From Stylophora pistillata (Eukaryota): a DNA stretch of 64,000 nucleotides. This document shows positions 1-29,871 of this stretch, piece by piece; position 1 is the first letter of the stretch, and every line of letters begins with the position of its first letter. The position numbers and the translations under genes are program-made. The stretch is from the NCBI RefSeq assembly GCF_002571385.2, contig NW_019218050.1, forward strand, positions 1 through 64,000. The letters are read 5' to 3'. The notes under the pieces were generated by a model. It ran no database searches, was not told the DNA's origin, and saw nothing but the letters and a program-made list of their open reading frames with translations.

Positions 1-712
1 ACACACGTGCTTTTGTGACAGTGCAACACGAAAGTCGAGGGAAAATGTACAGCTGGAATTTGGCAAAGCCACTGGATGTTGCCTGAAGGCTGTACCGCTG
101 GTTCTCTGGTTTATTATCTAAACCTCGACCATCTCTTATCACTCTTCAAGGAGTAAACAATGCTCACAGACGTTCGTTATCTTTCGTTTCGATAATAAAG
201 AAACAACAACAACAACAACAACAAAAAATATGTGAACATTTTTGCATAAGCAGACTTATTTTTACATTGCTGCAACGGGTGCATAAGAAACTGATTCCAA
301 AGCAAACGATTGTCAAATGAGAATCTAATCGATACGAATTTACAGCCATTCATTTGTAATAATCATGGAGAAAGAAGTCTGACTGAGATGATTTACGGAG
401 AAATGTTTAAACATGTACAAGCTAGTGAGAAAGAAAGTAGATTATTTCAAAAGCGATGTATTACCGACATCTCCATGATTATGATTTCTCCATATCAGTT
501 CCAGCCTTTAGTTTTGTGCTAAAGCACGTATAAATGTAGCATTCCTCAGCTGTTTCTCTTGTATCGTAGATTTAACCAAAGTATATAAGGTCAAACTTTT
601 CAAAGGCGATTCAATTAAAAATCTGTAACAACTCCCCCCCATTCCCCCCCTCCTTATCCCAACTATGCACGGCTCCGGAAATCAAGAGGGGTTAAAACTG
701 ATTCGCAGATAA

Positions 713-823
713 TAGTCTGAATTTCAGCCGTCTCTTCCCTTTATCCCAAGGGGGGCGCGGGAGAGAGACTCTCTTCCGCGCCCCCCTTGGGGTAAAGGGA
801 AGAGACGGCTGAAATTCAGACTA
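713..823. mobile_element. 111-bp palindromic non-autonomous DNA transposon (AcademH-like)
   Basis: TIR TAGTCTGAATTTCAGCCGTCTCTTCCCTTTA...TAAAGGGAAGAGACGGCTGAAATTCAGACTA with exact 9-bp TSD CGCAGATAA (704-712, 824-832). TA termini plus 9-bp TSD fit AcademH (recalled). Confidence 0.8.
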
Positions 824-3800
824 CGCAGATAAAGGTGCCGTCGGGATCGCACCCAAACACTATGTACACCCAGCCCCCACCCCTCCACCTCCCACCTGCA
901 CCCCCGGCCACTAATCCCAAGGGACTTTCTAGTGAGAGATAACAAAAATTAAACAGCTAGGATGAGGGAGGAATGGACTCTACAGTAAATATCATCCTCT
1001 TGCTTTGACACAGCTCGATCGCAATTGGAGTATCTTTAAAATGTGAATCTTGTTCTTTTTTTTTTTTGTTCTTCATTTTCAATCTTTTATGATTTTTACC
1101 ACCCTAGTTCCTTCCTCTTTCATTCTTGTTTCTCTCACCCTTTTTTTCATTTTTTCTTAATCAAAAAAAGTACTTTACAGCCTCTTTCAAGGTATAAAAT
1201 ACCGACTCGAGAAATCACTTAGAAGAATCAGGTTGTAAAATGAGGATTAATACAGCTCTCTTTAAAAATTTTGACAAAGAACTTAGACGGTCCCAAGTTC
1301 ACAAGCGGACTCCATTCACGCAAGTCAAATCTTTGTTGTTTTTTTTTCCACAAAGGATTACACAGTTTTACAGACGTCTAAATACGGAGTATGATCGTGC
1401 AACATGCGTAAATACGGAGTATTGAAATTAGAAACAAAAAGGTTGGAGCTATTTGAAGCGGCCTAGCGTCCTACGGCGTCAGCGTTCAGCAGACTAATTG
1501 TTTGTACCTCCAACAGATCAAAGGAGGGTTACAATAATACATTATTCAAGACATATCAGATTACAATTGCAGCGGCTTTTTTAGAGCAGATTCTCTTGTC
1601 TAGACATAGAGTATACCGCTGTCACACACAGAAACGCCCCAAAAAGCTATTTCAAAACAAGAGATTACAAGGTTTTACCAACAATAACTGATTGTCGTAT
1701 CTAACGAGCTTGATATATATGATAACTTGCAATTAACAGTCGAAATAAAAGGGATCAAAGATTTTACGCTCGGCTTGTGAGAGAGTTTTTACTGGATACC
1801 TTTCGTGTTGAAGGCATAGAACGGCAAATTCGGACTCCTCCGTATCCGGGCTTTTAATCTAGGTAAATAAGGAATGGATAATTGTTTGTGCTGCAGGTAG
1901 CGGAAGAGGAAAAATTCATAGCTTGAGGGAGTCTTTGTCGTGTCACTGCTCGGGAAACAGCAAATAAAAGTGTAAAAATTCACAAGAAATTAGACAAGTG
2001 CAACCAAATATACTTTGATAAGTTATTGCAAAACAGCCGAACCGACAAATTTTGCTGTGTACATTTTTCTATTCTCAAGATCTTAGCTGAGGCTCAGATC
2101 CTAAACTTGATTTAAATACAAAAGTACACGGCTCTAAGACATTGACTCAGTTGGCTCTCTGACGCAAGGAATGAAAAATTCACCCCATTCGAGCCGAGAA
2201 AGATCAATATGGCTACGGAAACGAAACCTGAATATAGGAAATTTCGCAGCATTGTCGAAGATTTGTTGTCTCTTGAAAAATCAATAGATCGGTAAAAAGA
2301 AAACATTAAACAAAGGGCCACCATGAGCAAAGGGCTGTTCCGAACAGAGTGAAAATTCAAATTAATGAGATGAAAATAGTTAGCTTAACAAACTCGTGAA
2401 TACCTGTTTAGTCTGTAGGTAAAACCTGTGCGCTCTTTCAAGTAACCGCTTAACAGAAGATACTGCACTAAGATGGTTAAGCACTTTCGAGTTTTTTCGG
2501 AAGAATTCTAATTTTCTGGGATTCACACGAACTGAATTCAATTTAAACTCTTGCTGCTTGATACGCAGTTGTGTTCTGTCGCAAAGACTACAACTACAGC
2601 ATGCAAGTATTCTTCACCTCTGAATTAGAGTTCCCTAAAACTGCGCACGATAAAATTGCAAATTAAGAACCATTCTGTTCTTTTTTCTTAGTTGAATAAT
2701 CAGCTCATTTCTGAACAAAGCCAATATCTTGGTTACCTAACCAGCAAATATTGCATCAGTCGAGGCTCGTCTTCTTATTCTTAGTTATACAACAATCGTA
2801 AATTACTGATACGTGATTGGTCGATCCTCTAACCAATAGGATTCCAGCTTGTCAGTCGTCAGGCCTAAATATATATTTAACTTGTAGCTTGTTGTTAAAT
2901 TACAGGATGTAAGAAGAGATTAAAAAACTAATTTCAACGATTTCTCGAAATAAGAATTTAAGCTGCGAAGACAAAAGAAGGTCGATGGTGCAAAGACAAA
3001 AAAAAAAAGAACATTAGGGATGGGAAGTGTCTCTCATTGCCTTCAATGAAATGAAGGCAATGAGACAAACAATTAAAAAAATCGAAAGTTAAAAAAAGTG
3101 TGCTTTCTTTTTTTTTTTTTTTTTAAGGTTGTCATAAACAGATAAATTGCGAGTTGTCCTTAGAGAGAGAGCTATCTGCAAAGACCTTTTTCTGTAAGCA
3201 TATTGAAAACCCTGAAAAAGTGAGAAAGATCTTTCAAAAAATAGTACAGAAATCTTTGAAAAAACCGCTGGGAAAAATAACGGGGGGAAGATTACATCTT
3301 AAATGTATTACGATCGACGGGAAACGCCGCTTCACACAAAACCGTTCCAACGTAAGCTTCACGAAAGAACTGGCATTTTTGAGGGAAAGGTGTGTTATAA
3401 TCGTATTTCAATCAGGAAATCACCAAACCAAGAGAAACAAATCATAAAAACCACCAACCATTCACTTCATTTCGCGACGAAGTAAAACTTAATTGGTCGC
3501 GAGCTATTTACGAAAATAATTTGTTCTCGAATTCTTATAAACAAACGGATTCTTTTTGAACTTGACACTGACTGGGGGACGTTGAAAAAGCCGAGAAGAA
3601 AAACAATACGACAGGAAATCAGTCACATTAGTCACGGGTTAAGATTGTCAACGTAACCTACACCCAGCAGACTTTTTCAGTTACTTGGGCAGTCGATCGG
3701 CAAACAACAACAACAAGTTAATGATTTTCTGAGCAGCTATAATTATAATGTAATTTTCTGGTTTCAATATTGTCATCTCGGCGATAAATGTGCAACAGGT

Positions 3801-4145
3801 GAAAACGACGAACGATAAATCTCGATATCAGACGAAGACCTGCGGTTTATTCATAAGTGTACCGGGGAATGGACTGGGTAGGGCGGGGCAGAAAATGAAA
3901 ATACTTCAAAATCACTCCAGTTACTGTAACTTGCTAGTGGTTCTAACACCTCTGCACAAAATTGTCGCACCATTTGATGGCGATAGGCAAGTAGTTTGAA
4001 ATACATTTCATAAAGAACAAGGTACACTTGCTAAATATGTGAAAGTTAGAACACCTAGGAGAGATAAGTTAAAATATTTGACATCATTGTTTTCAGGAGT
4101 CGTTTTCCCGTGATTCATTCTTGTTCACTAGAGAAGACTGCTATT

Positions 4146-4355
4146 TCACCCTTTAATTCCCAGAAGTGATTAAAATGTAACTTCTCCCCGGAATAACCTT
4201 ACATTATCCAGCAAAGAGGTAGTGAGAATACTCAAACCTATCAGGTTGAAGTTAATACCTCGATGTAACACCAGATTCTCCTTACTCGTCGAAAAAGAAA
4301 ATGTTTAGAAGCGAGAGGGGAGAATTAACAATCAGATCTTAGGAGTTCAAGGAAT
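4146..4355. repeat. Interspersed MITE-like repeat with (TTAA)CCCTTT...AAAGGG(TTAA)-type ends, piggyBac-like, degenerate
   Basis: A clearly related copy lies at about 58603-58830 (shared aaacaggtaatgagaatact and gaggggagaattaacaat..gatctt). A sister family occurs at about 9401-9543 and 12179-12378. Confidence 0.55.
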
Positions 4356-6324
4356 TTATTCAAATTTGTCTGTTTTCTGTTGTCGTTGATCGCCAGAATA
4401 TGTTCAGTTGTAGGAAGATTACCACATTGTTATTGCTTATTCAGTGAAACATAAATGTAACAACACCAGAGGCTATGGACGTACATCAAACGGAACATAA
4501 ACATTACATAACGTACGGTTAAAAATGAATGAGTTATTGCAACTGATAAGTTTGTTTCCTGTCGTCTCAGCAGGCAACTCATCGTACAATGTTTGATTCA
4601 TTAAATTTTGGACAAATATCACTTCGGCCGGAAATCATGTTTTGCAAACAGAGTTTTAATCTACGGTTTTTCCGCACAGTTGTACGAGGAAACACTTGCG
4701 TGCTTATTTAATTTCTGAAAGTAATTTAAGTATTGTTATTTCCAACCAGAGTTTAAACTTTATAATTTGAGAAGTCTGCACATAAGCTAAATTTGCAAAC
4801 CAGTAGTGCAAAACAAAAGATCTCAGTTCTTTATTCAATGAGGCTGTATTGCAAAATATAAGAATGCGTAAGAAAGCTGTGGAAGGAAAGAAACAAAAAA
4901 AATTCTTATCTCCTATTAAATGCATGTATTTCCTTAAATTCTTCCCTTACTCATGAAAACGAACCCTCTTATCTATTATAACTCAAAAATATATCTTGTT
5001 TTCCCTTTTCTTAAAAACATTTGCATCGCACAAAATTACAGATCATAAACTTCGGCGTGGTGAATGTTATGGTAATTTGTTTACGAGAATTTCTTCATTT
5101 CGGGTCAAAATAATCATTCACCGCTATTTCGAGCAAATTTATATAGAGTATCGAAAGTCATTCGGGGTTACTATGGCTTAATTTACTTTGAAAACACCTG
5201 CAAAGAGGAAAACGCAAAACTAAAAAAACAAATATGACTCGCATTCTCGCGATCTACCGCGCTTTGGGGCCTGGGCAGGTTGAAGCGCGGGTTCCGGTTC
5301 TCAAGCAGCGGCCGGTAATCGAGCCTTGTTTCTTGTGTTAACATTGATTCTTGTCTTTTCCTCCTTGTGATATTTTCTGTCTTTCTAATTGGCCATCGTG
5401 TCTGCTTAGGGTTTCGTTTTACAACACTCGATCGTAAAATGCTCAGGTAAAAACTCAAGCTGTGATCGTTTGGTTTTTTTTAGCCTTAATTTGTACTGAA
5501 TTTGGTACTTCAGTAAACTTCTCAATATTTTCTAACCCTCCCTATTTTTATTGCTGTTTGTTTCAAAATAACATCTGCAACTTAAAAAGGTGTCAATTTC
5601 ACCAAACACTCGGTTATTACTTTATTAATTTAACACAACTTGTGCATACATCCCCAGCGCTTTGCTTGTGTGAGACACTTGAAACTGACATATTTGGCAG
5701 ATTTTCTAGAATATTTTCAACAATGACAATAGGTGACCTTGGTCTTTAACAAAAATAAACTGCGAAGGTGAAATCAATAAATAAAACCACATGCATTGTT
5801 TGGTCAAACAAAAACCGCGGGAGGGCAATAACACATGTTTCCCTATGGATTAAGGCGAACCAATAATAAAATATAAGCTTAGGCTAATTTAACGTCTCCA
5901 AACAACAATTAATGCTTGCGTTCTTAAGGTGACAGGTCAGTGACGCTAAACCCTACGAAAGTAAATAGCTAACGGCTATTTAATACGAATGAGTATCTAA
6001 GAAAAAAAAAAACAATCAATATTTAAAGCAAAACATACCATCGATGGCGAGAAAGCGCGGGAAAATACGTCATCGATCAGGTGAGAAACGGCGCGAAAAA
6101 AACTGGTATTGGCACCACGCAGATTATTTTATTAATTTTTATTATCTCTCTTTAGTTTTTCTTCGAATCTCATAAGTTAAAGATATAACTTCTTTAGGTG
6201 AAATACGAAAAAAACCACCATGGAGGATCAATTCTTTAGCAATCGTCAAAAAAATTGACAATAAATTACTACACAACGAAAACTGGGATTACAACTACTA
6301 ACATGAATTGAAACCGTGGCTATT

Positions 6325-6369
6325 CAACCTCGTTCTCAGGGCCTTTTCCCTTCATTGGGAACGAGGTTG
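6325..6369. mobile_element. 45-bp minimal MITE (AcademH-like)
   Basis: TIR CAACCTCGTTCTCA/TGGGAACGAGGTTG with exact 9-bp TSD GTGGCTATT (6316-6324, 6370-6378). Confidence 0.7.
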
Positions 6370-7631
6370 GTGGCTATTTCAACCTTAGAAAAGAAAGCTA
6401 ATACTGAGCTTTGCATATGAATTTGCTCAAAGTGCGACGACAAAACTGAAAAAGCAATCTTGTCTGTGAAGAATTATGAATTAAACTATCCCATTCAAAA
6501 ACAAATGTGCAATGCGCAGGCGTCAACAAACACGTAATGCTGTGTTTTGAATTTTGTGGTTCAAAGTTATGTTTTCCGTTTTATGCAACAAGCGTCTAAA
6601 AAACAAGTCACCTATTAAAAATGTGCTTCTTCTCCTGTGATGTCAGTTTTCTCTAAATAATTTAGCAGCACCAGACAACTGTGTCAGCTGGATATAAGAA
6701 TCGTTTGTTAAATTGTTTTGGACAACTTGCATCCGTTTGCGAGACAAAGAAACCTGTCCCATTTAATTTTTGGTTTCGGACAACGACCACTAACATAAAA
6801 CAAAACTATCGAAAAGAATTTTAAAGTCAATTAAATGATTAAAAATCATGAGAAATCACAGAAAAATTGACATGAGTTCCTCGGCAAACAACTGTCCAGA
6901 AAAGTTGCTTATAGTTCAAAGTTGCGTTGTGTGGATATATCAGTGGAAACATTTGGGCGCGGCGGAACACGTTTTAGAAAAAATAACAAAACAGGCAAAG
7001 CCCATTTGAAAACAAGGGTTAGTAAAATACGAGAAACACAACTGCTTCCAAAGGAGAGTCGACCTCCATGCTTAGTTTTTTAAATAGACTCGAGTTATTT
7101 TTCTTTCTAAACAAATAGACTCGGCTTTGGATTTTATCTCGCCATCGAAAAGCAGTCTACGCGTACAATAATCTCGTATCCAGGTCCCACCGTTTGACTG
7201 TACTTCTTGGCCGTGGAAGGTCTGGGTAAGACACTAGTTCAACAAGTTAAAGGAGTAAAAGACCATTGTTGAAAATGATTTATAAGCTTTAATTCCTAAC
7301 TTTTTCTTTGTTCTTTATGGAACTCTGATTCCTTCACATATTAACGTTTTTTTAATTTTCTGTAATTAAATACAAATGTTTACATTTTGTCATCATGAGC
7401 CTAGATAAGGCCAATTTAGGACAATAGCGTGTTTACTTTGCTGTGGAAATCAATGGGGCGTCGATGTGTACATGCCATTGTAGCACTCTTAGTAACCGGC
7501 TAAACTGGCCAAATCGTTCCCTGACAAACACTGTGGCTCAGAGGGTTCATCTTTCATAGCGATCATCCGGCTTTCATTTAAAAGTTAGCCACGTAGTGAC
7601 CTAACGCATTATTTCCAAGCCATTTGACAAG

Positions 7632-10600
7632 TCACGTGCCGTTAATGTAAACAGAGGCAAGCTCGGCCGCACAGCCAACAAAAGCTCCCAACACACTCCC
7701 CCAGAAAACTATCCAACTTAGATGTCGGTAGACCGCGTCTTCAACCAGCTGCACGTGAACAGATAAGGAGAGTCACGTGAAGATCATGTGAATTCTCAAG
7801 CTAAGGAAGTTTTCACTATCACCCTCCTTGTTAACGATAGTTGAACAAGCCAGGTTCGTTTTCAAAACAGGGAGCACTGATTTTCACTCGCTGCGGTTTA
7901 TTAGTTTGTTCAAATGATTACGATTTCAAGCGGTCAATCACCTTCTCGTCAAATTTCTCACATTACGCATCATGCCACCAAACAGAAATCGTCTGTTCAG
8001 TTACTCGGCTACAACTTTCAAGGATTTACAAGAAAGAGCACTTTCTCTCACTTTTTGAGATAATCATTGCACACCTTATAGCTTTCTTCTGCTTCAAGAA
8101 ACCTTTGCAGTTTCTCGCTTGAAAAAATATCACTATTAGCGTTGATTCTTTTCACATAACCTAAGATTTTCTATTTTTTCTTGTTACTTTTTTCGTTGGA
8201 TAAAGTTATCCAAAGGGTAAATCGCTATCCAGTGGTAAGTGGTAAAAAAAGCGTACCGCGCTCTACAGTATAGAGAGTTGCCCAGTGGATAGCGTTATCC
8301 TCCTTCCTAGAACCGGACGATTGCTAACAATTATTAAGAGAACATAACAATTGGTCACCCAAGGATGGCACTCACCTGCTTGACTTGTTGTGCGGACAGT
8401 TCATGCGTCCTTGATGAAATCAAATCCACAATCTTTAAAAAAAAAAAAAAAAAAAAAAACCAACAAAAAGAAAAAAAATGTCGGATTACTTGAGGGGAGT
8501 TAGCCACACCCTGATTGCGCGGTATGGGAGTGCAATGGGGTAGAAAGGAGTGATGGAACCCGCACACCTTGCGTTTCCATGCCAACTGCGCCGGCTGCTC
8601 GCGCTGAGGAGACGACTGGGGACGAGTCAGCTACCAGAATAAGTAATCTAAACATCAACCTGGCCATAGTTTGCCTTTTCTAAACGAGTCGTTATTTAAG
8701 TGCAGTTAAGAAAATACACGAAATATCCACGCAGGACGCACTTTGGCTTTCACTGACCGTGGCGATTGCGAGGGCACTGGTTACGAGCTTGAAGAGCGAG
8801 GAAGTACAGAAATATGACATTCCAGACCAAGCCAATCCCTTCCTAAGAGACATCGTACTAAACCTAGTGCTCAAGGCCCCACGGAATAACATCAGCTTTT
8901 AATTTTACGTTTGGCGCGACTTCTTAAAATAGTTAAAGGGCATGAATGGGTATCTCTACTACGCATTGTCGAAAATAATGCATACCTGTTCTCTGAGGTG
9001 ATCAGCATTTAACAGATCTACTGATTCCATTGATGATAGTACCTACAAACCATAAACAAAAACAACAAATCAAAACAAAAAAACATCCGGTTTCAGTGGC
9101 GGATACAGACCTTGAACTAAGGGGGGGGGAGGGGGCATTTTTGTCCGTGTGCGTTCACCTGCCGGCTTTTCTTCCCCCTGCGTTTATTTCTTTACCCAAA
9201 ACAAGGGGGGAGAGGAGCGTGTGCCCCTCCCCTAGATCCGCCACTGGGTTTTCAAAATAATGTCTATTCACTGCACATATGATAATGAATTTTATATGCG
9301 TTCAAGAAAAAAAAAACTATTAACTGGATTAATAACAGATGGCTTAATAGCATTTAGTATAGCAAAGTTTCACAGTTTCACTTCCTGTTGATGACGTTCT
9401 GTAACCCTTTGGTCCCTAGGCGTGAGGAGCATGTTATTTCTCCTAACAATATCACCTCCCCCACCCCCCACCTCAAACATTAAGGTCACAAGAATAATGG
9501 AAATGATCACCAACTAAAGACGCTCTGGATTAAACAAATTCTCNNNNNNNNNNNNNNNNNNNNNNNNNNNNNNNNNNNNNNNNNNNNNNNNNNNNNNNNN
9601 NNNNNNNNNNNNNNNNNNNNNNNNNNNNNNNNNNNNNNNNNNNNNNNNNNNNNNNNNNNNNNNNNNNNNNNNNNNNNNNNNNNNNNNNNNNNNNNNNNNN
9701 NNNNNNNNNNNNNNNNNNNNNNNNNNNNNNNNNNNNNNNGATTAAATGCAAATGAAGAATTATGAGAGACCATAGGTCTACTTTCCCTTTTCCTTACCAA
9801 TGGTACAATTTGTGTTTTAAACTTCAACAATTGAGGCTTAACAAGGGGTGCCAGTTTGGCTTTGGTGACACCAAGCATACGAAGTCTGAGACCTACAAGT
9901 AAAACCAGATAACATGGCACTGAGTCAATAACTTTTCAGGGGTGGATCCCGCATTTTTTTGAGGAGGGGGTGCACAACTAAAGAATGGCGTAACTGACTG
10001 GTGACCAGACGTAAAGTGAGTAGGACTAATGCTCCAAACTTCAGTGCCAATTACTACCATTTTTACGCCATTTAACATAATTTCTTCAACCTAGTCTCTT
10101 ACTCTACTTCAACACCAATAAACCACATAGTTTTTTTTTGCAGAATACCACTTGTATTAGAAAGCCGCAGGTCATCTCAGGGGGGGTACCCACCCCCTGC
10201 ACCCTCCCCCTAGATCTGCCCCTGCCTTTACACTACAATGGAAGGGCCTGTTATACTGGTCTGTTTTAACCAGACAATGAGCACTTAGAGAATGTGTTCC
10301 ATGTATGAGTGACTGACAGAATGAATGAAAAAAGGAATGAATGAATGGATGAATGAATGTATATGTAAACGAGCAATCAAACAAATGTCCTATGGATGGA
10401 TGGATAGATGGATGGATGGATGGATGGATGGATAGATAAATGATCCTTGCCTTGCTTCAACTCCTTTGCAAATAGCCGACTAATTTGTCTCTAACCAGAT
10501 GAGATTATTGTTACTAATGGCAGTCAGAAATTCAATCCACTAAACAACAAATAAATCTGCTGCTGAATGAAGCAATGAATGGACCTGCTGAATGGACAGG

Positions 10601-11755
10601 TCAACTTACCCTCCGGTGTTCCCATCAAGACATCCAATTGCTCATGAATCATATTTTCTGCCCTTCTGGAATCAAGCAATTTCTCTAGCTGATTATCTAT
10701 TTGAAAGAAAAAAAATTAAATAAAATAATATGACAGAACATTTGAGAAAAATTCAGCAACTAAACTTTCCAAGGCATGACTGAGCTAGACTTACACTACA
10801 CATATCAAAATTAACTAGTTCTGGTTCATTGTCTTATTCTTAAGCAGAAAAGAAACTCCAGTATTATTGTTGTGTCACTTTACTAATTTCGATAAGTTCT
10901 AAAAAAAAGGAAAATGAGTGGAAATCATTCCATAGTAACCTAGAGGTGAACAACTTAAAACAATGTTATGCTAATTTTATTTAACTCTCATAAACTACAT
11001 CTTTATTTACCTATGTGTTCTGCTGTCAGATATGACCTCTTCTTGTCCTTAACATAAGTTCTTACTTGTGAAGGACTGAAAAATTCCTCCAAAATAAAAT
11101 TAGCCATCAGTTTCCTGGCTGTGACAAAATTCTTAGAAATGGCTCCACTACAAAAAAGGGAGAGAAGACTTCAAATAAGAAATATAATAACTACCTATGT
11201 GATACCAATGACAGGCTTAGTTTACTAATTTAATGCAAAGCTGCATACAAGGCAAATGAAAATATAAAAGTGGCCTGGCCATGAAAAATTGCGACAACCT
11301 CTTCAAGGCCACTGACCCCAGCAATACCCTTCTTTAAGAGACCAGTGTTGATGGATAAATCTAATTTGAAAATGTCTGAAGTATGATAGCTTTGAAAAGA
11401 CCAAGAAGTTTGCTGAAATAATTTCATTTTTCCATCCTCCTCTACATTCCCAAACAAGAGTTTTGTGGAAAGACAAGTAAGTCAGTTTGTGCCATTTTTG
11501 AAGATTGGCACTGTTAAAAAGGAGCCTTTGAGTGCTGAAGCAATCTTCCCTCTGAAAAATACTATTTCATAATATTTCAAAAAACCAAGGTGGTTTCAAT
11601 TACTTTAAGACTAAGACAGATTCATGGGTGAAGTTTAAAAGAAATCGAATTTTTGAAATGAAATGCATCACATCACTAACAGAGACTGCCTCTCAAAGGG
11701 TTAAAGCCACAACAGCACCACAGAACAAAAGGTAATTAACAATTATTCCAAGAGG

Positions 11756-11794
<39 letters not shown>

Positions 11795-11814
11795 ATAGCG
11801 CCAAGTTGGCTATA

Positions 11815-11848
<34 letters not shown>

Positions 11849-11956
11849 CTGTTTTATTAAAAACATTAAATTAAATTATTAAATTTTTAGCTCCCTTTTA
11901 ATTTCAAGCTGACACGAACGCTTTCCATATTTGTAGATTATGGAATATTGGCTCAC

Positions 11957-12006
<50 letters not shown>

Positions 12007-14834
12007 CTCCAGTTTTTAATAATAATAAACATTCCCCCTCAGAGGCCAACAATAAGGGTCACATACCTGAAAAACAACCCTGGAATCCTGTTGAATATCA
12101 GTTTAAGTCCAACCCAGTTGGTTACTCCACCTAAAGCAACAGAGTAAAATACAAAATGTATTAAATATAAGTTCATTGTTAACTCTTTGATCCCTAGGAG
12201 CTGCTACCATCTAATTTCTTCAATATCAACCCTGAAACACATATTAAGGTCATGGGAATAAAGGAAATGATCACAAACTATAGAGAGTCTTGATTGTTAG
12301 ACAAATTCTCTCAATCTGCACCTTAGGAAATGTACAGAGAACAGTATGGAGAATATGCATCCTGATGTTAGGGTGTAGAACTTTGACAAAATATCACAAG
12401 AGAACTGAGTTCCTACTTTAACAAAGCGTACAATAGGTTCCTACAAATGGCAAAATGTCTGATTTGGAAAGGAAAATGAATGAAGAACAGCCAAAAAGAT
12501 TTTTGAAAAAGGACAAGTTTTCTGAACTTGCATCACATGCTCTATTCCCCCTGCTTTGATACTAACTAACAATTCCTTCTTTCAGTAAATCATTGCTCTG
12601 GGCAATATCAGTTACAACAGAAATACCAACAGATGGCAGGGTAAGAAAAAGGCAGCGAAAATATGTCAAATAAGAACACATAAAGACAGGTGTCATCATA
12701 CCAGTGAATCCAAAGAGCCCTGCTGCCATCAACACTTCACAAGCCATCTTGATGGCTGAAGAGAAAAATTTAAGCATTGATGAATAACGGTTATGCTTAA
12801 TCCCTTTATAAATTGATTAGTGTACAACCTGTGTTGATTCTGCTGTGGTTGAAGCTTAAAAAGTTAAAACTTATATGTGGCAATAGAATGGGTTTTCCCT
12901 GTGTCTCTACTATTCAAGACCATGAGTGAGGAAGGGGGAGCTTGTTTGATTTTATGGCCTGGGGGTGGGTGCTTACTCAGGGGGGGGGGCACTTATTAAA
13001 AGCATGGGCTCTTACCAGAGGAAATATGGTAATCCAAAAGGCAGACAGTGAAAAAAGACATTCAATCACTATTCTGCATGCCAATAGGCAGCCCCAGCCT
13101 CTAACATGCATGAAAACATTTAGTGCCTCCTCTGCTCTATGTAGAGATTTTTTAATGATCTGCATTTGATTATGTCTGGATGTCCATTAAAGTGTCTCAC
13201 TTGCCTTTCTGTTCATTTTTGTGTTTAAAAACTGTGATCAGAACTCCACCAGTGATGAAGAGAAAAAATGCAACAACAATGCTGACACAGCCAATGGTTA
13301 TGTTGGGGTAGCTTCTGTGGTATGTCTTTGGGATACATGCAGGCAAAGATTAAAAGTAGAAAAAAAAATATTTGAATGAGGCTTCAGTTTGTATATAGTG
13401 TTACAGCACTAACGGTTTTCAGAAATAACATGGACAATTTAACTATATGCTTGATGCTTTTCACAAAACATGAGATTAATAAGTTGGATTCCAGCCAAAA
13501 TAGCAATCTTCATTTAATTGAGTTAATGGCATATAATAAAAAGAACACTTTTAATCCTCAGTTGGTGACATTTCTGGTGACCATCAATGCCACAACTTTA
13601 TTAAGTGTCAACAGGCCAAATTGCAATGGATGCCATCTGCTTATTAGGCTAAAAAATGCAAATGAGGCACTGAGGTCAGAATAAATAACTTCTGGGTTGG
13701 TCTATGTTTGCCAAATAACCATGAGAAAAAATTTCCTTGATAAATACAAAATATTTATCAAAAAAAAGGGAACAACATACAACTTCTGATGAAAAGTGTG
13801 AGGGTAAACTGACAGAATCTTGCAAATTATCAGCATGTTGACTATACAATGATTCTGTGTGAAAGGATGACACATCACTCATGGCTTGTCCATTGCATTC
13901 CACAGAGACACCTAAATTGTCAAATTCTGCATGCCTACTGCTTGCTTGAGAGCCTCTAGAGTGTCTTCTTCTACCATCTGATAGTAACTCAAGGGTTGCA
14001 TTTCTGTAATGAGACAATACTTTCACTTAAATTAACTTATCACAACACCAGGGATTTAATAATTTCAGCTGATCATTGTTCATATGTTTCCACTCTCTTT
14101 CCTTTAACTTGCACCTTGCTAAAGACAATGTTGAAGATAATAAGATAAACTGTCCCATCTTCTCAACCAATCAGACTCAAAACTTAAACCAATTGCCTCT
14201 TCTAATGTTTTCCTACACCTCAAGCAGTTTCTTTGTTTTTACTTTGCGATATGATTGGCTCCATGTGTTCTTTATACTTGGCTCTGATTGGTTGTTGCAA
14301 TTAATTTGGCTTTGGTTTTACAAAACTTAATCAAGATGTGCCTCATATTGAGAGTAATTAAAGGAAACTGAAAAAATTACCTTTCTTAATTTTCTCACCA
14401 AGACCTGAGCTTGATGTACAGAATAGGAGGATTAATTTGTAGGGGGTTGCTTATTCTTTATGGTAATTTGCTTAGTGGGGGAAAATTGTCAAATACGGGT
14501 ATTTATACCGCTCAGAGGAAAAATAGTTGAAGGGGTAATTATTTGAGAGGGAGCATCCTTGATTGGAGAAGGGGAGCTGAATTGAATCAAGTCATTACGG
14601 CACCAACAATGCTTTTTTATGTCACCTAACAGTCAAGTTATTTTATGGGTGAATGAACCCGATCACTAGATTAGTTATTTCTTAGGTTTTAGTAAATTAG
14701 TATTAAAACTGAAAGTGGACCTAAGTCGAGAGCTCGAAACTTCGAGCACGAAATGAGGAATAAAGAAAGTTGATCTCTGTATGCTCTCACCGTGCATGAG
14801 TACGTTTTTGGTTTGCTTCAGGCCAAGTTGCCAT
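7632..14834 (-). CDS. DUF445/UPF0754-like membrane protein, 11 coding exons, 351 aa
   Basis: Exons 14834-14791, 14003-13781, 13325-13205, 12755-12702, 12130-12067, 11147-11011, 10696-10610, 9892-9798, 9042-8986, 8432-8376 and 7748-7632 splice in phase (1056 nt, no internal stop, TGA at 7632). The product has GLFGFTGGVTNWVGLKLIFNRIPGLFFSG...FILEEFF and RTHELSAQQVKQLVEDAVYRHLSWIVFWGSVLGAFVG, matching my recollection of the N- and C-terminal motifs of short bacterial DUF445 proteins. Exon 1 is the least certain. Confidence 0.85.
9093..9246. mobile_element. MITE with CAGTGGCGGAT...ATCCGCCACTG termini (hAT-like)
   Basis: TIRs visible. Related elements at about 9937-10224 and 23882-24051. TSDs not cleanly preserved. 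Confidence 0.6.
9544..9739. other. Assembly gap (N run)
   Basis: Run of n. Others at 34845-34968 and 47695-48401, single n at 30833. Confidence 1.
10320..10437. repeat. (TGAA)n/(TGGA)n microsatellite
   Basis: Visible directly. Confidence 0.9.
11735..12025. repeat. Hairpin-containing interspersed repeat (Crypton-like non-autonomous, tentative)
   Basis: Begins TTAACAATTATT and has a long internal inverted repeat (gttggatatgagatgat...atcatctcatatccaac). Similar architecture at about 15715-16297, 53170-53487 and 62890-63060. Confidence 0.45.
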
Positions 14835-14983
14835 CGTCAAAACTAAAACAGCTGGTTTCCATGATTTGTGTTAAAAGGACCACAACTTCTTCCAAACGTC
14901 GCCATATTGGGTACTGAGAAAGGGACTGGAAATTACATGACCCTTCAAAACCCCCAGCGGGTAGTGGAGAGGATTCCAACACT
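14835..14983. promoter_or_regulatory. Short divergent intergenic segment, candidate bidirectional promoter
   Basis: 149 bp separate the divergent ATGs. YY1-like CGCCATATT at 14900-14908. CpG-richer than the flanking introns. Confidence 0.5.
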
Positions 14984-15445
14984 ATGGCGGTTAACGTTTG
15001 GTTACGAATTTTCCTTTACGGCCTCCACGGGTTTTTCGATGAAATAGTGTTCACATCGTTGTTTAATTTTGTCGAATCGAGCTTCCGTGACTGGAAATTC
15101 CGCGGACACTCTTCGTTATGGTCATTTTTCCAGTATGGATTTGGAAGCTTTGTAGTCGAACAAATGTACTTGAGTTGGAAAGGCAAGTGGTACTTACCTA
15201 TGCCTGTTCGAGGTGTTCTGTACGTCCTTTGGGTGTATCTGTGGGAGTTTAGTTGGGGTGTAGTGCTCAGACATTTTAATGCTTGTCCTTGGGATTATAG
15301 TAATCGACAATGGAATGTCTATGGCCTGATAACTTTGCAGTATTTTCCGGTGTGGTACATTGCAAGTTTGTATCAAGAATTACTGTCGGAATATCTACTA
15401 ACGCTTTCCAAAGATCCGAGATACACAGATCGGAAAGATTCCTGA
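14984..15445 (+). CDS. TMEM229B: Transmembrane protein 229 family (TMEM229B-like), single exon, 153 aa
   Basis: Motifs LYGLHGFFDEIVFT, WKFRGHSSLWSFFQYG, YLWEFSWG, ACPWDYS and GLITLQYFPVW are characteristic of TMEM229. Confidence 0.88.
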   Translation: MAVNVWLRIFLYGLHGFFDEIVFTSLFNFVESSFRDWKFRGHSSLWSFFQYGFGSFVVEQMYLSWKGKWYLPMPVRGVLYVLWVYLWEFSWGVVLRHFNACPWDYSNRQWNVYGLITLQYFPVWYIASLYQELLSEYLLTLSKDPRYTDRKDS

Positions 15446-24175: not shown

Positions 24176-27100
24176 TTATTTGGAAGAACAGGTACACTCC
24201 TGGACTAATTGTGTGAGTCGTGCGATGAATGGCTTTTTCCTCTTCTGAGGTGAAATGTCAGAAATATCCGGCCCAAGGTCGATGCACATGTCTCTTAACC
24301 TAGCCACTCTTAAAGTTATGCGTGTACGTTTTTGTACAAGTTCGCAGATGTTAAGATCGAAAGATACTATCGGATACTAAATAGCCACATCACTCGTCAC
24401 ATTTGCACACACTGAAGATAGTTGACTCTCAGCTTCGGCGGAAATTTCGTCCTCGTCGACGCTCTCCATGTCCACATCTGAGACCTCACTAGCTTTTGCT
24501 TCATTACCGGCAGCTGTAACTTCTAATCGCTTCTTTGCTGAAAGACGGCTGAAGAAGCCACTAATCTGCTGCGGCGTAAGGACTTCATCGGGTTGAAATC
24601 GGCGTTCTCCCGCTTGGTCTCTTGCTAGGCTCATGGTTTTCGTAACTTCCTGTGGATCGCTTTTTCGTCCACCATACTCCCCTTTTTAAAATTGTTCAGT
24701 GAAGAATTCGGTCTGTTTCTTGGTAAAACGCACCTTTTTCTTAATTGTCTTCGAGGCCCAACCCATTGGAAGAGGCGGCAAGCCATCACTCTTTGATTGT
24801 GCAGCAACTTGAACGCTTGGTATTCGACTGTGTTCCTCCGTCAGCTTAGAAGAATAAACTCTTTTAGCGTTATCGTAGAGAGTTTCCCTTTCGAGCATCA
24901 TTTGGTGTTTTCCAGTGTCTAGGTGTGCCTGGAGGTTTGAAAAGCCAATGTATGCTTTTACGCATCCTTCTCAGTCTGGACAAGGGAAAAGCATGTCATC
25001 TGGCTTACATTCCCCATTACAGCTTCGATCTTGGTTTTCACTTTCAGTTGAGAAATCTGCTTCGATAGAGCTTTTCTTAATATGGCGGTGTCTCACGATC
25101 TTGAACGTCGGTGCCCCACTTGGATTCTGCGATGGCGAGTCTAAGATTTCCAATTTTTCGGGCTGCCTTATGACTCCTTCGAACTTGGCCCACGGCACTA
25201 CTCTACCGGAACCCACATTGAATGCTCTCCACACTCGTATGCCACGTTCATCGTACTCAAAATTGTTGAGTAAGCTTATGCCATCCCATTTGACATTAAA
25301 GGTGCTTGATGGTTTGGCAGCAACATAACTTGCTTTCACTCCTGTGGTTCCTTGGCCAGATTCAATGGCTGTTTTGAACTGTAGAGCGTTTATGACAGCA
25401 TTTCCTTCGTTTACGTACCTTCCAACGTCTCCCTTGATTGTTGCCGCTTTGCGATCACATACCCCCTTTCCACCTTGAGGGTCCGAAAAGTCGTTTCTTA
25501 CAACAGCCACTCCCACGGCATCACCGGCCAGCTTAGCTGAGATGATTGAATTTCCGCTGTGATAACAGCCAGCGTTATCTTGTTTGTAATATGCCAATTC
25601 CAGCTCTGGAATTTCCTTTTTCAGGTTAGTAAGGCAGTTAAGCATTATCGAAGCCACAGTCACACTTTCTTTGGCGCAGCTTTGAAATACGTGAACAAGT
25701 GTCTGAGATTCAAAGTGCTCAGAATCCTCCGACCGTCTTATGGCAACGCTAATGTGCCATGGCAATCCTCGCTTCGCAAACTAATCTGACTGTGCCTCTC
25801 GATATTTTCGGGGCATGTATATCATTGCCCAGTCCTGGACTAACAGCACTGATCGGCTGTTGAGTTTGGCTAGAACTGAATGCGTCGCCTCAACTTGGCG
25901 GACTGAACGTAGCTGAAGGGCTTTCCAGCTAATGATATCATCCCTTGCCTGCTTGATGGTATGCTGCAGGTCAGCTTGATCTTCCGCTGACGAGACCGCA
26001 CTTGAACACTCATCTTCTATGGCACGCAATACTTCCTGTAACTCATAACACTGTTCACATGACTCATTGTGGAGATGGTCGCAGGAGCCCCGAAATTCAG
26101 CGTTGTTTGGGTCACTTAGCGCATAAATTCGACAATGATCGGGAACCTTTGAGGCCTCCACTGCACGTATTTAAAATAAAAAGTAAAATGACAAGCGCGT
26201 GATTTAGTGTATATTTGCAAAGCAACGCATGTGCATATGATCGACATTTCAAAAAGATTACTTATCCAATTCTCAGCTCTGTATACATGTGTGTAAGCGT
26301 ATTACAGTGAATTGTAAACTGTTGTTTTCATAGGGAAGACTTGGAGAGAAAGAAAGAGGTAGCTGTGATCATAGTATTAAGTTTACTACATCATTTCTGC
26401 AAAGGCAACGCCTAATTATAAAATATGCACCCACCTTGTAGTCGCCCTTTAGGTACCACTTCGACAAACGAAGTTGCTGCTTACTTTCCCTCGCCCATTG
26501 CTGAGTCTTGCCACAGTCAACAAGCTTGTCTACGAGTTTTTCTAAGGCATCAAATGCTTCCTCTCCTGATGTTGAAAAGTTATCAAGTCCTTGCAGAGAC
26601 GGCGAACAGATGAAGAACACACGGCCAAAACTCTCTGTAGAGTTCTCTTACTCATATGCTCAAAGTTGGTTTCACAGCAGTATTGTTGATACTGCTGGAC
26701 AATACAATCTGGTATCATTGTTCTGATAACATTGGGTGTTTTTATGATTTCGCCAGTTGATAATTTCAGAAGTTTTTCCCCAAAAGGAACATCTTGAATA
26801 ACGTGTGTACTCGTTATGAAAGAAACAAAATGTTCTAATTTTATAGGTTCAATTCTCATTCTCCTTTTCTCCTGGTTTGGAAGAGGAGCAGCTCTTCCAT
26901 GTATCAGCCTGTGAAGTCGGGCAATGTTGTAGCGATAGCTAGTATCGGTTAGAATAAACTCCCTTATCTCCTTAAGGGATAACTTGTCTGACATCAAAGA
27001 GAGTATTTGCGGTCGGGTGCTCCAATGTTGCGCGTTCAAGTAGCCTTCAGCAAATGCATTAAGAAGCTCCGTCTCCTTTTCACCCCTGCCTTCGACCACA

Positions 27101-29871
27101 ACCTCACTCTAGCTGCATACAGCGTGACGATCACAAAGCTCCGTCTACAGTTCTTGCGAATTTTCAGGTGCTACGACATCCAGCATTGCAAAAGTACATT
27201 GTTGAGCTATCCGTAGGTATCTGCGTTTAGTACGCTCATGCGCTGTATTCCACGGCACTGATAATATGTGACGTACTGGACTGACGTCTCGAAGCTGTAA
27301 GAAGCGATTTAGCTGCACTTGGGACTCGTTGTCTAGACTAGAGCTTTCATCACTCTCTTCGGAATCTTTTTGGGGAACAAATAGGCTCTGCCGTCTGGAT
27401 GTGGAACCTTCTGGCAATGCTTCATCACCAAAAGTGACAGCACAAGTGGCAGGAATATCAGAGTCACTCCTTCGTTTATCAACCTGACAAAAAAGTGAAC
27501 ACATTGCTTTGGATAGCTTCAAAATGAGATCAATCGTATGCACGCGCGGGGAATTGTGTATGAAAGCGCAAGTCGCATGCAAGGCGGGAGTTAATGGTCG
27601 ATAATTATTTTTTACCTTATAATATAATTCACTGTACCCTGTGAGCAGAGGCCCTTCGATCTTCCTAGATTATTCGGTAAGAGGAAAGAGCCTCTGCCAG
27701 CCGCCGCAACTTTACCTGTTGAGCATGCGTTAAATTCAAATGTAACCGGGCCTTGCTCAGCCTTGTATTTTCCCGCGAGTTTCTTGCAAGGAAAACACGA
27801 CAAATACCGAAGGACGATTCGATTAAAAAAAGTGGATTGTAGAGTAGTTTTAATTCAGGTGATTCCATCATGGAATCGTCTGATATTTTTGGTTCTCCAA
27901 AAACGCCAGTGAAAAAGGTGACGTCCAAAGATCGTGCTGCAAGAAAAGATTTGGTGTGCTTGTTATGCGGCATAGCGCCAGTTGGGGAGCGATACACACT
28001 TAATGTGGAAAATCGCCATGATCTTCGCGTTAAGTTACAGAGCATCTTGGATAAAAGTGTTGACTTTACTGTTCAGTAGAGTCGTGTCTGAAGAACTTGT
28101 GGCCGCTAAACAGAATCGTTGGGAAAACGGTACAATGTGGTAAAATTCACGAGCTTAAACAATGAACTGTGGGCTCGTATTTAGTCAGCAATTTCTAACA
28201 ATACACATACTCACTGAGGCGAAACAGGGAAAACTGGTTTCCAACCGGACTGACTCATCCACTTCATTGGATGAGCGGCAAATCAGAGAAAGGTGCGGCG
28301 GCTGGCAGAGGATCCTACCTCTTCCCCACTAATCTAGGAAGACCGAAGGGCCTCTGCTCGCAGGGTAAATTCACTGAAAACCTATCCTGACATCTTTGTC
28401 CAGTTACTTCTCAGTATTATTTTCCATTTGGAGCATTTGGAAAAAAATGTTGAGGAAGCCATATAATGATTTTAAACCTTTACTATTTGGATATATCCTG
28501 GAGTGTGATTTGCTATCTGGGCAGGGCATGCCTATCCAATTCTTGTGTTATGTATGGTTTTGCCTAGTCGATGACGAGCGGTAATGGCGGCGTTTGAGCA
28601 TTCGCCTGCAAGTTAGTCTGGACACGCCGTTCTCCCGCCTGGGTTGAATCGTTAGGCAAGAAAAGGGCGAAGAAGGGAGAATCCAGAGGACACGTTAAGG
28701 TTTTCCACTTTTATTAGTTATATTGGATGGAAATTCTTCAGGAACTCTTTGAAGAAACTTACCAAGGTTACACCACTTAGACCTTCTGTGATATTTTCCA
28801 CACTTCCTGTGGCACCCAAGCTCTGCGATTGTAGCTGATCAATTTTTATTTTTGCTAGGGACTGTCGACATCGCACACAAATTCCTTTAATATTTTGAGG
28901 GAAAGAATTAATATATACTTTTTTTTACCTTACACATCCTCCTTAAACAAATAGCTCTGCATGTGGCAAAAGAACAAAACTAGCCCAGGCAAAAGCCCCA
29001 CAAACCCGGCCCAAATTGATGACACATGCTATAGTTAAACTTGCCACAAGTCAGTAATTTACGTTCCTTTCTTTTTATTCTCACATTGGTAGAAGGAATT
29101 AAAATATCTGTGAATATTTCAATTCGAGCGTTCCCCACGCCATTAATTAGTTTTGACAGGAGCCCATCACTGGTTTTGAATAAGTTTTGAGAGAAACGAA
29201 AATGTTGAATGAACGCCAATGTTTCCCGACGTAAAAATATTTGCAAAAATCCTGAAAAAGACGTGAAAATAATTTTGCTGTTAAACTTGACGTTGTTTTA
29301 CGCGACAGCAAAGTTATTTGAAGTTAAGATATGAAGTCTGTGATTCCCGCCAAGTACTCTGCTTGAAATGAGAAGCTATAAGGATGTTCATCCAGTTACG
29401 TACAATGAGAATAAACTAGTGGGACGTCAATTCTTACAAGATTATGACTCATTGTAATCGCTTACCTGATCCGACGGGTACGATGTTTTTCGTAGGTTCA
29501 AAAATTTGTATTGAGTGCTGCAAAGTAATTCCCCCTTCTGCTGCGGGTATTTCTTTAGATTCCTTTTTGTGACCGGAAACATCCTGTGGCACAGAACATA
29601 ATCTACTTCCTCTTCTCCATCCAATTCCAAGGCTTGATCGATGTAATGGGCAAACAGTCATTTCCGAAAAATTGACGGGCTTCGCGAAAATCCCGCTTCT
29701 TGCTTAGATAAGATCAATCTCTGTCTCAACACCTGAAAATTGTAAAAAACGCTTGTGGCTTCTGATATCCTTGCCGCATAATGACAGAGATACTGTTTGA
29801 GTGGACCGATGCCTTGCGCGATCCCCTGCGTCACAAATGCCACCCACAATATCAAGGAAAGAACAAGACAT
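24176..29871 (-). pseudogene. Sola3-type transposase pseudogene (four exons, Cys-rich N-terminus, DDD core, C2H2-like finger)
   Basis: Exons about 29871-29466, 28884-28763, 27483-26435 and 26170-24176. Motifs QDWAM..PRKYREAQSD*FAKRG.PWH, QDNAGCYH, FSDPQGGKGVCDR and FPCP..GC...HLDTGKH. Several in-frame stops, a frameshift near 26597 and a damaged acceptor near 26172. Confidence 0.82.
27635..28367 (+). mobile_element. 733-bp AcademH-like deletion derivative in a transposase intron
   Basis: TIR TACCCTG(T/C)GAGCAGAGGCCCTTCG..CTTCCTAGATTA, exact 9-bp TSD AATTCACTG (27626-27634, 28368-28376). Internal ORF remnant 27870-28079 has CLLC and a decayed downstream C..C. Confidence 0.8.

Follow-up and report, generated by a model that had tools for sequence, protein, structure and literature searches.

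The gene described here lies on the minus strand of a 64,000-nucleotide stretch of the coral Stylophora pistillata genome (contig NW_019218050.1, positions 1 to 64,000; "the window" below). It is a member of a previously undescribed, old, eukaryote-wide subfamily of short-form DUF445 proteins. Its eleven exons, running from 14834 to 7632, splice into a coding sequence (CDS) of 1056 nucleotides (nt) that encodes 351 amino acids (aa) and ends in a single terminal stop. The original prediction, made from the letters of the window, had proposed just such an eleven-exon reading frame in a spliced animal gene rather than a contaminant; the exon model, the RNA joints and the match to an independent transcript protein bear it out, and the G.TNW and C-terminal motifs quoted there are present in the translated model. 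The same prediction called the gene hidden, which does not hold, as RefSeq and UniRef already have ortholog models (Pocillopora verrucosa LOC131797741, Nematostella LOC5513789 and others).

The ten introns are 314-919 bp long, nine with GT-AG ends and one, intron 3, with GC-AG ends; GC content is 42% in the CDS and 39% in the window. Intron 8 contains a 196-N gap (9544-9739) that is spanned by a 755-nt joint. The RNA evidence comes from 7 of 24 listed runs, and first mates lie mostly on the plus strand, in keeping with RNA from the minus strand. Nine of the ten junctions are directly present in the joint table, the GC donor included (10 and 13 reads). In raw run X22 every one of the nine is supported by 9-46 reads, in run X24 eight are supported by 1-22 reads, and contig run X8 also covers eight; run X3 has none of the nine, and run X15 (of unrecorded type, containing 79% of words) has none at the two gene joints listed. 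The tenth junction, 8986/8432, is missing from the table and adjoins a skipped poly-A repeat. Two indirect observations support it: exon 2 begins at base 137 of a 1031-nt contig of run X5, and 136 nt plus the 895 nt of exons 2-10 make 1031; and P0001, a Logan transcript protein with 347 of 351 residues identical to the model, matches it across this junction. A twelve-exon model with an extra exon at 14409-14381 was rejected: there is no RNA depth there in runs X21, X22, X24, X5 or X8, and the joint runs from 14791 to 14003.

Several smaller observations concern the transcript. Intron 10 has RNA depth and a contig in runs X5 and X8 (7749-8405), and a transcript that kept this final intron would encode a protein lacking helix 3, like several shortened database forms. 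A non-canonical minor joint (13333-13936; 4 reads with 2 starts, run X24 only) is likely an artefact. Some introns carry short high-copy interspersed repeats (11730-12050, 12180-12380 and 9400-9540), with very high depth in run X15.

Membership of DUF445 and predicted structure

The membership of DUF445 that had been proposed is supported by Pfam, with a whole-protein score against PF04286 of 37.6 bits for P0001 and 39.0 for the Pocillopora protein at a gathering cut-off of 33.8. The pass of P0001 is narrow and owed to its last 58 residues, with residues 289-346 matching model positions 309-366. Across the 127 aligned relatives, 122 match PF04286 at E 0.001 or better, and the relatives align to the model from about position 7 on. 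In profile A2 it is the N-terminal half that aligns with E. coli YjiN (YjiN residues 20-114; probability 90.7 and E 1.3e-6 for 92 columns). The coral protein has both hallmarks of the family, namely an N-terminal hydrophobic helix with the G-x-x-N/D-W-x-A...LF-x-P motif and a C-terminal hydrophobic helix with H-L-x-W and G-x3-G-x3-G. It is not of the long form (YjiN type, about 370-430 aa): its core is about 250 aa, and the 368-position model was never matched full-length. The top clusters in the ESM Atlas are DUF445, one all-eukaryote with Cnidaria commonest and one 63% eukaryote with Planctomycetota commonest. An NCBIfam scan gave nothing close to a cut-off.

The first hydrophobic helix had been read as an added transmembrane helix. 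It is instead ancestral, being found in 66 of the 80 bacterial loci introduced below, and the YjiN alignment starts from it. The N-terminal tail of about 95 aa had been read as low-complexity; it is disordered and rich in serine (17 of 95 residues) but barely of low complexity (3.92 versus 4.04 bits). This tail alone is a eukaryotic addition to the short form.

An AlphaFold2 model of P0001 is all helical, with a mean predicted local distance difference test (pLDDT) of 81 and a predicted template modelling score of 0.62; residues 1-78 fall under a pLDDT of 50 and form the disordered tail. Three hydrophobic helices recur family-wide (residues 100-121, 138-160 and 324-349), and five helices between them are amphipathic, with moments of 0.30-0.38. 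Conservation is strongest in helix 2 (G142, G148, T151, N152), in the P-x-x-x-G-S-G turn after it and in helix 3 (H322, W325, W329, G330, G334, G338). G148 and N152 are each kept in 124 of 127 rows and T151 in 121, while the zipper glycines G330, G334 and G338 are kept in 124, 124 and 125. No catalytic-type motif is evident among the conserved residues. The model suggests a three-pass membrane protein with a cytosolic tail and helical region.

Structural comparison, another of the checks proposed at the outset, did not connect the protein with a known fold: neither PDB (two models) nor BFVD yielded a Foldseek match reaching E 0.001. A PDB sequence search returned four weak rows, the best (E 0.0026) being a designed chimera. 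The best VIA-align result (Z 8.4, root mean square deviation 3.7, 119 residues) is the TrwI/VirB6 stalk and lies within the helical-bundle background; longer alignments with F-BAR and chemoreceptor helices (deviation 10-14) hint at an elongated shape only. A homotrimer prediction for residues 94-351, made without an alignment, scored 0.00 with an uncertain fold and is evidence neither way.

Distribution and origin

A HMMER search against 1.84 billion representatives gave 535 matches, of which the best 150 were inspected, and a profile search gave 1171, of which the best 120 were inspected. Thirty proteins were looked up, and the 20 that are named are all from eukaryotes; further names came with other matches. 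The animals in this combined set are five stony corals, Actinia, Nematostella, Sycon, Ephydatia, Trichoplax, Saccoglossus, Ptychodera and Branchiostoma, and the choanoflagellates are Diaphanoeca, Helgoeca and Didymoeca. Other eukaryotes include Thecamonas, Diphylleia, Mantamonas, Vannella, Vermistella, Anaeramoeba, Barthelona, Stygiella, Rhodelphis, Ostreobium and a bicosoecid; the id prefixes ANDGO and PLAT we take to denote Andalucia and Platysulcus. Among the matches listed there is no vertebrate, ecdysozoan, lophotrochozoan, echinoderm, fungal or land-plant name. The best 150 of 535 extend as far as bacterial forms; of the 137 non-reference rows among them, 15 match an animal best (8 coral, 3 with names and 4 unnamed). 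In the accessible part of a placozoan orthology table, the Trichoplax gene has a blank human-derived name (PMC10580291). Patchy loss, including loss in the usual model animals, fits the listed names and this blank entry.

On the bacterial side, confirmation succeeded for 592 of the 600 stretches scanned. The locus set used here consists of the best 80 of these 592, and 68 of the 80 are from Pseudomonadota. In Planctomycetota the short form occurs in 34 of 401 sampled genomes.

How did a coral come by such a gene? The main tree (IQ-TREE, C20 model, 69 chosen rows, 251 columns, partial and redundant rows excluded, root assumed) carries out the suggested comparison with bacterial, protist, sponge and cnidarian sequences, and has a single eukaryote-type branch of 43 rows with support 100/99. 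The 13 animal rows likewise form one branch (97/95). Two quick trees group choanoflagellates with animals, with Shimodaira-Hasegawa-like approximate likelihood ratio support of 93, or 96 with P0030 included. In the latter of these, P0053 and a clade of eight planctomycete loci with P0086 stand closest to the eukaryotes. Very probably, therefore, this is one old eukaryotic subfamily, spread over Discoba, Metamonada, Amoebozoa, CRuMs, Obazoa, Archaeplastida and stramenopiles, inherited by animals and lost in many lineages.

The original prediction had offered two origins, a domesticated transfer into animals or an ancestral gene lost in model animals, and both the spread over protists and animals and the eukaryote-type branch favour the ancestral gene, with patchy loss. 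The rival reading, in which cnidarians or early animals gained the gene from bacteria by a horizontal transfer of their own and introns filled it later, would be in keeping with the short forms commonly carried by marine bacteria (in the 80-locus set) and with the long hexacoral branch (0.62 in the 69-row tree). It also survives the looser of two approximately unbiased (AU) tests, in which hexacorals and all bacteria on one side of a branch are not rejected (p 0.098). In the stricter test, however, grouping the animals with the 22 main bacterial rows is rejected (p 0.014). The nearest matches outside the hexacorals, Sycon (E 1.7e-48) and Trichoplax (7.8e-45), are closer than the best bacterial-type row, P0053 (1.9e-29), and the high support for the eukaryote and animal branches also speaks against transfer. 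Animals nested in bacteria without related protists are not what is seen, as three choanoflagellates and many protists carry relatives. Moreover, five of the nine shortened or alternative relatives mapped (Nematostella, Branchiostoma, Ptychodera, Ephydatia-like and Helgoeca-like) part from their full-length counterparts exactly at the site of coral intron 10, and this intron, at residue 313/314, is likely common to other animals, to go by these sequences. Since protists widely carry the family and the eukaryote-type rows form one branch, transfer into animals is unsupported, and we regard it as very improbable.

Several points nevertheless weigh against the old-subfamily reading. The bootstrap of the 69-row tree had not settled, 13 of the 43 eukaryote-type rows and 4 of the 26 bacterial-type rows lack a species name, and the grouping of choanoflagellates with animals is unresolved in this careful tree. 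With the root assumed, the direction between planctomycetes and eukaryotes could run either way. The p of 0.098 counts here as well, as do the four of nine shortened forms that break elsewhere, in an intron test that is itself indirect. Finally, the wide, patchy spread could also arise through transfers from eukaryote to eukaryote.

As a separate matter, P0030 and P0104 are a 57% identical pair that stands beside choanoflagellates and animals in one tree and may be of holozoan or animal lineage. The coral genome also holds a second DUF445-type gene, on contig C181 (Table 1), predicted from sequence. It is identical to the window protein at 69 of 309 residues and to Nematostella LOC5509698, which is ortholog-like, at 126 of 323. 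None of its three introns falls exactly at a window-gene position, one being a codon off. Trees place it outside the animal branch, not significantly; its grouping with the animals is not rejected (AU p 0.40), and a separate transfer was set aside on that ground. It would be either an old paralog or a separate gain. Further PF04286 matches mostly contain internal stops. An apparent second genome match, on contig C516, was rejected as a paralog, being the overlapping end of that contig (8460 bp, 99.99%).

Features of the window

Table 1. Positions of the exons and flanks of the DUF445 gene, of nearby features and of the second DUF445-type gene
Feature	Positions	Strand	Evidence or remark
5' untranslated region (UTR), DUF445 gene	to about 14897-14926	-	X22 read ends pile at 14896-14897; X5 contig with 136 nt ahead of exon 2
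Exon 1, coding part, ATG at 14834	14791..14834	-	joint 14003/14791 in runs X22, X24, X8
Exon 2, 223 nt, bulk of disordered tail	13781..14003	-	joints 14003/14791, 13325/13781
Exon 3, 121 nt, predicted membrane helix 1 (residues 100-121), GC donor at end	13205..13325	-	joint 12755/13205; hydropathy
Intron 3, GC-AG, 449 bp	12756..13204	-	joint ends CT..GC, 10 and 13 reads
Exon 4, 54 nt, predicted membrane helix 2 begins	12702..12755	-	joints; G142 in 122/127 rows
Exon 5, 64 nt, G-x-T-N-W and F-x-x-I-P motif	12067..12130	-	joints; G148, T151, N152 conservation
Exon 6, 137 nt, amphipathic helical region begins	11011..11147	-	joints; as query, retrieved P0001 and Pocillopora model
Exon 7, 87 nt	10610..10696	-	joints 10696/11011, 9892/10610
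Exon 8, 95 nt	9798..9892	-	joints
Exon 9, 57 nt	8986..9042	-	5' joint direct; 3' joint by two indirect supports
Exon 10, 57 nt	8376..8432	-	joint 7748/8376; intron 10 follows at residue 313/314
Exon 11, coding as far as TGA, with predicted membrane helix 3 and its W-G-x3-G-x3-G zipper	7632..7748	-	PF04286 E 0.0014 for exon 11 alone
3' UTR, DUF445 gene	on to at least about 7330	-	RNA depth
Intronless 153-aa membrane gene, head to head with DUF445 gene	14984-15445	+	start codons 150 bases apart
Intronless BTB-BACK-Kelch open frame, 644 codons	17557-19491	-	
Broken open frames resembling decayed mobile element	24971-28072	-	sequence reading only
Second DUF445-type gene, open frame of 325 aa in 4 exons	G000:C181 about 557050-554120 (L094 6051-3121)	-	genome match

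The DUF445 gene and its 153-aa neighbour likely have a two-way promoter in common. The neighbour shows low-depth plus-strand transcription and has no similarity to the DUF445 protein. It matches PF06541 at E 4.2e-5 with 24.2 bits, below the 25.9 cut-off, and presumably resembles TMEM229B. An open stretch on the plus strand at 8693-8896 has no Pfam match. Window positions 1-8459 duplicate the end of contig C516, an assembly overlap.

Possible functions and comparison with known systems

In a literature search that covered few subscription papers, no paper on the eukaryotic DUF445 subfamily was found, nor any literature for PF04286 as a term or for six ortholog gene ids. DUF445 mentions in the accessible parts of three papers (PMC12919932, PMC7272582, PMC7774453) are all bacterial, and a partial UPF0754 member is named in a microalgal barcode legend within the portion available (10.1101/2023.03.16.532925).

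What might the protein do? That it is a short-form DUF445 protein of old origin, predicted to cross the membrane three times and handling lipids or shaping an internal membrane, is as a whole quite possible without being probable; lipid handling or membrane shaping, taken as the function by itself, is a tentative suggestion. On this proposal the tail would be cytosolic, helices 1 and 2 would span the membrane, about 160 residues of amphipathic helices would lie on the cytosolic side, and helix 3 would return across the membrane. Copies might pack via the helix 3 glycine zipper, and the amphipathic helices might bind or bend the bilayer, or pass lipid at a contact site or in the endomembrane or phagosomal system; these last two steps, taken jointly, are speculative. 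The three-pass, zipper-packed reading is drawn from the pattern of hydrophobic and amphipathic helices together with the conserved residues in helices 2 and 3. The lipid lead comes from two eukaryote-type relatives, P0034 and P0077, in which a VASt domain (PF16016) is fused ahead of the DUF445 core; the two are 32% identical over 582 columns and therefore point to one old, kept fusion. A lead toward the cell envelope comes from bacteria, where a 5.96-fold rise of YjiN is reported for the inner membrane of a mutant in the cell-wall hydrolase spr (PMC7774453). A mitochondrial role was set aside, as the readable supplementary files of the Andalucia mitochondrial proteome contain no entry for ANDGO_06017, DUF445, YheB or UPF0754 (PMC7050145). 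Twelve of the 16 supplements of another paper gave no match (PMC6040629).

The lipid proposal has its own difficulties. The VASt fusion occurs in 2 of 211 scanned proteins and counts as one event, and other fusions exist too: with EF-1 guanine nucleotide exchange (P0042, P0252), TPR (P0118) and an HflX-like GTPase (P0153, perhaps read-through). There is no conserved neighbour gene in 80 plus 25 bacterial loci. The charge asymmetry underlying the topology is weak, and Pfam scoring and folding were run on P0001 as a stand-in for the gene model, albeit one differing at four residues. Of 29 well-kept positions, 5 differ from the consensus in the coral protein, whose role may therefore have shifted. 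Ostreobium is an alga, and its place among the relatives weakens any strict tie to phagotrophy.

With the same gene and the same old origin, the protein might instead oligomerize into a channel or pore that passes ions or small solutes, the helical region serving as a cytosolic vestibule. Glycine zippers line several oligomeric pores, and 112-125 of 127 rows retain the helix 3 glycines at i, i+4 and i+8 as well as polar T151, N152 and H322. Yet among positions kept at 80% or more the three hydrophobic helices contain no conserved charged residue, the VASt fusion points toward lipids, and no transporter partner is widely recurrent beside the bacterial genes, so that we think a channel unlikely. 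Rather improbable is a role as accessory or scaffold subunit in some other membrane machinery, for instance that of a P-type ATPase or dynamin-like protein. The model here would be the GxxxG proteins that accompany FezB in ferrosome clusters, as described in the available text of a preprint (10.1101/2020.01.10.902569), but its main text has no YheB and both of its DUF mentions are of other families. Antisense shadows aside, moreover, no partner exceeds 14 of 80 or 5 of 25 loci of this subfamily.

A broader proposal, which we consider a long shot, extends the lipid reading to a membrane-lipid component of the last common eukaryote ancestor, common with a planctomycete lineage and acting at contact sites or food vacuoles, at which the VASt fusion hints. 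It would have been kept mainly in bacteria-eating protists and in animals that digest intracellularly (sponges, placozoans, cnidarians, hemichordates and amphioxus) and lost in yeast, flies, worms and vertebrates. If this were true, those losses would explain why the protein was overlooked, and its site of action in corals might be the vacuole that contains the symbionts. Old membrane proteins lost from model organisms ("patchy" proteins) are a known blind spot of cell biology. Nematostella, Trichoplax, amphioxus and a choanoflagellate are tractable hosts, and a result would be the first function for DUF445, for which the papers found give none. The planctomycete-type sister group is also relevant to the question of which bacteria supplied membrane proteins to early eukaryotes, although the direction is not fixed. 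The weight of all this is limited: the gene is already annotated, its function is just a lead, and many uncharacterized patchy families exist.

Among known systems, the LAM/GRAMD1 (Aster) proteins are VASt sterol-transfer proteins of membrane contact sites. P0034 and P0077 join VASt to the core on the predicted cytosolic side, whereas P0001 has no VASt domain (PF16016); the tie of the coral protein is a fusion lead in relatives, not membership. DUF445/UPF0754 itself (PF04286) is represented by E. coli YjiN (b4336) and by YheB, presumably the B. subtilis name, which is also seen in JGI labels. The coral protein is like these in its N-terminal helices and motif and in its C-terminal helix, but its middle is far shorter (a core of about 250 aa, against 426 aa for YjiN), and the 95-aa disordered tail, the ten introns and the eukaryotic host are on the coral side alone. 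The bacterial short forms (about 230-270 aa; Vibrio, Shewanella, Colwellia, Planctomycetota and others) have the three hydrophobic helices and motifs in common with it, and the helix order agrees in two predicted models. They differ in the missing N-terminal tail (median motif position 47 versus 157), are about 20-30% identical, and are single genes with no conserved operon. The annotated orthologs Pocillopora verrucosa LOC131797741, Nematostella LOC5513789, Trichoplax TRIADDRAFT_55628 and Thecamonas AMSG_06634 fall in one tree branch with the coral gene and bear labels only, "uncharacterized" or "DUF445 domain-containing"; the Pocillopora model is also 351 aa long and is 85% identical to the coral protein.

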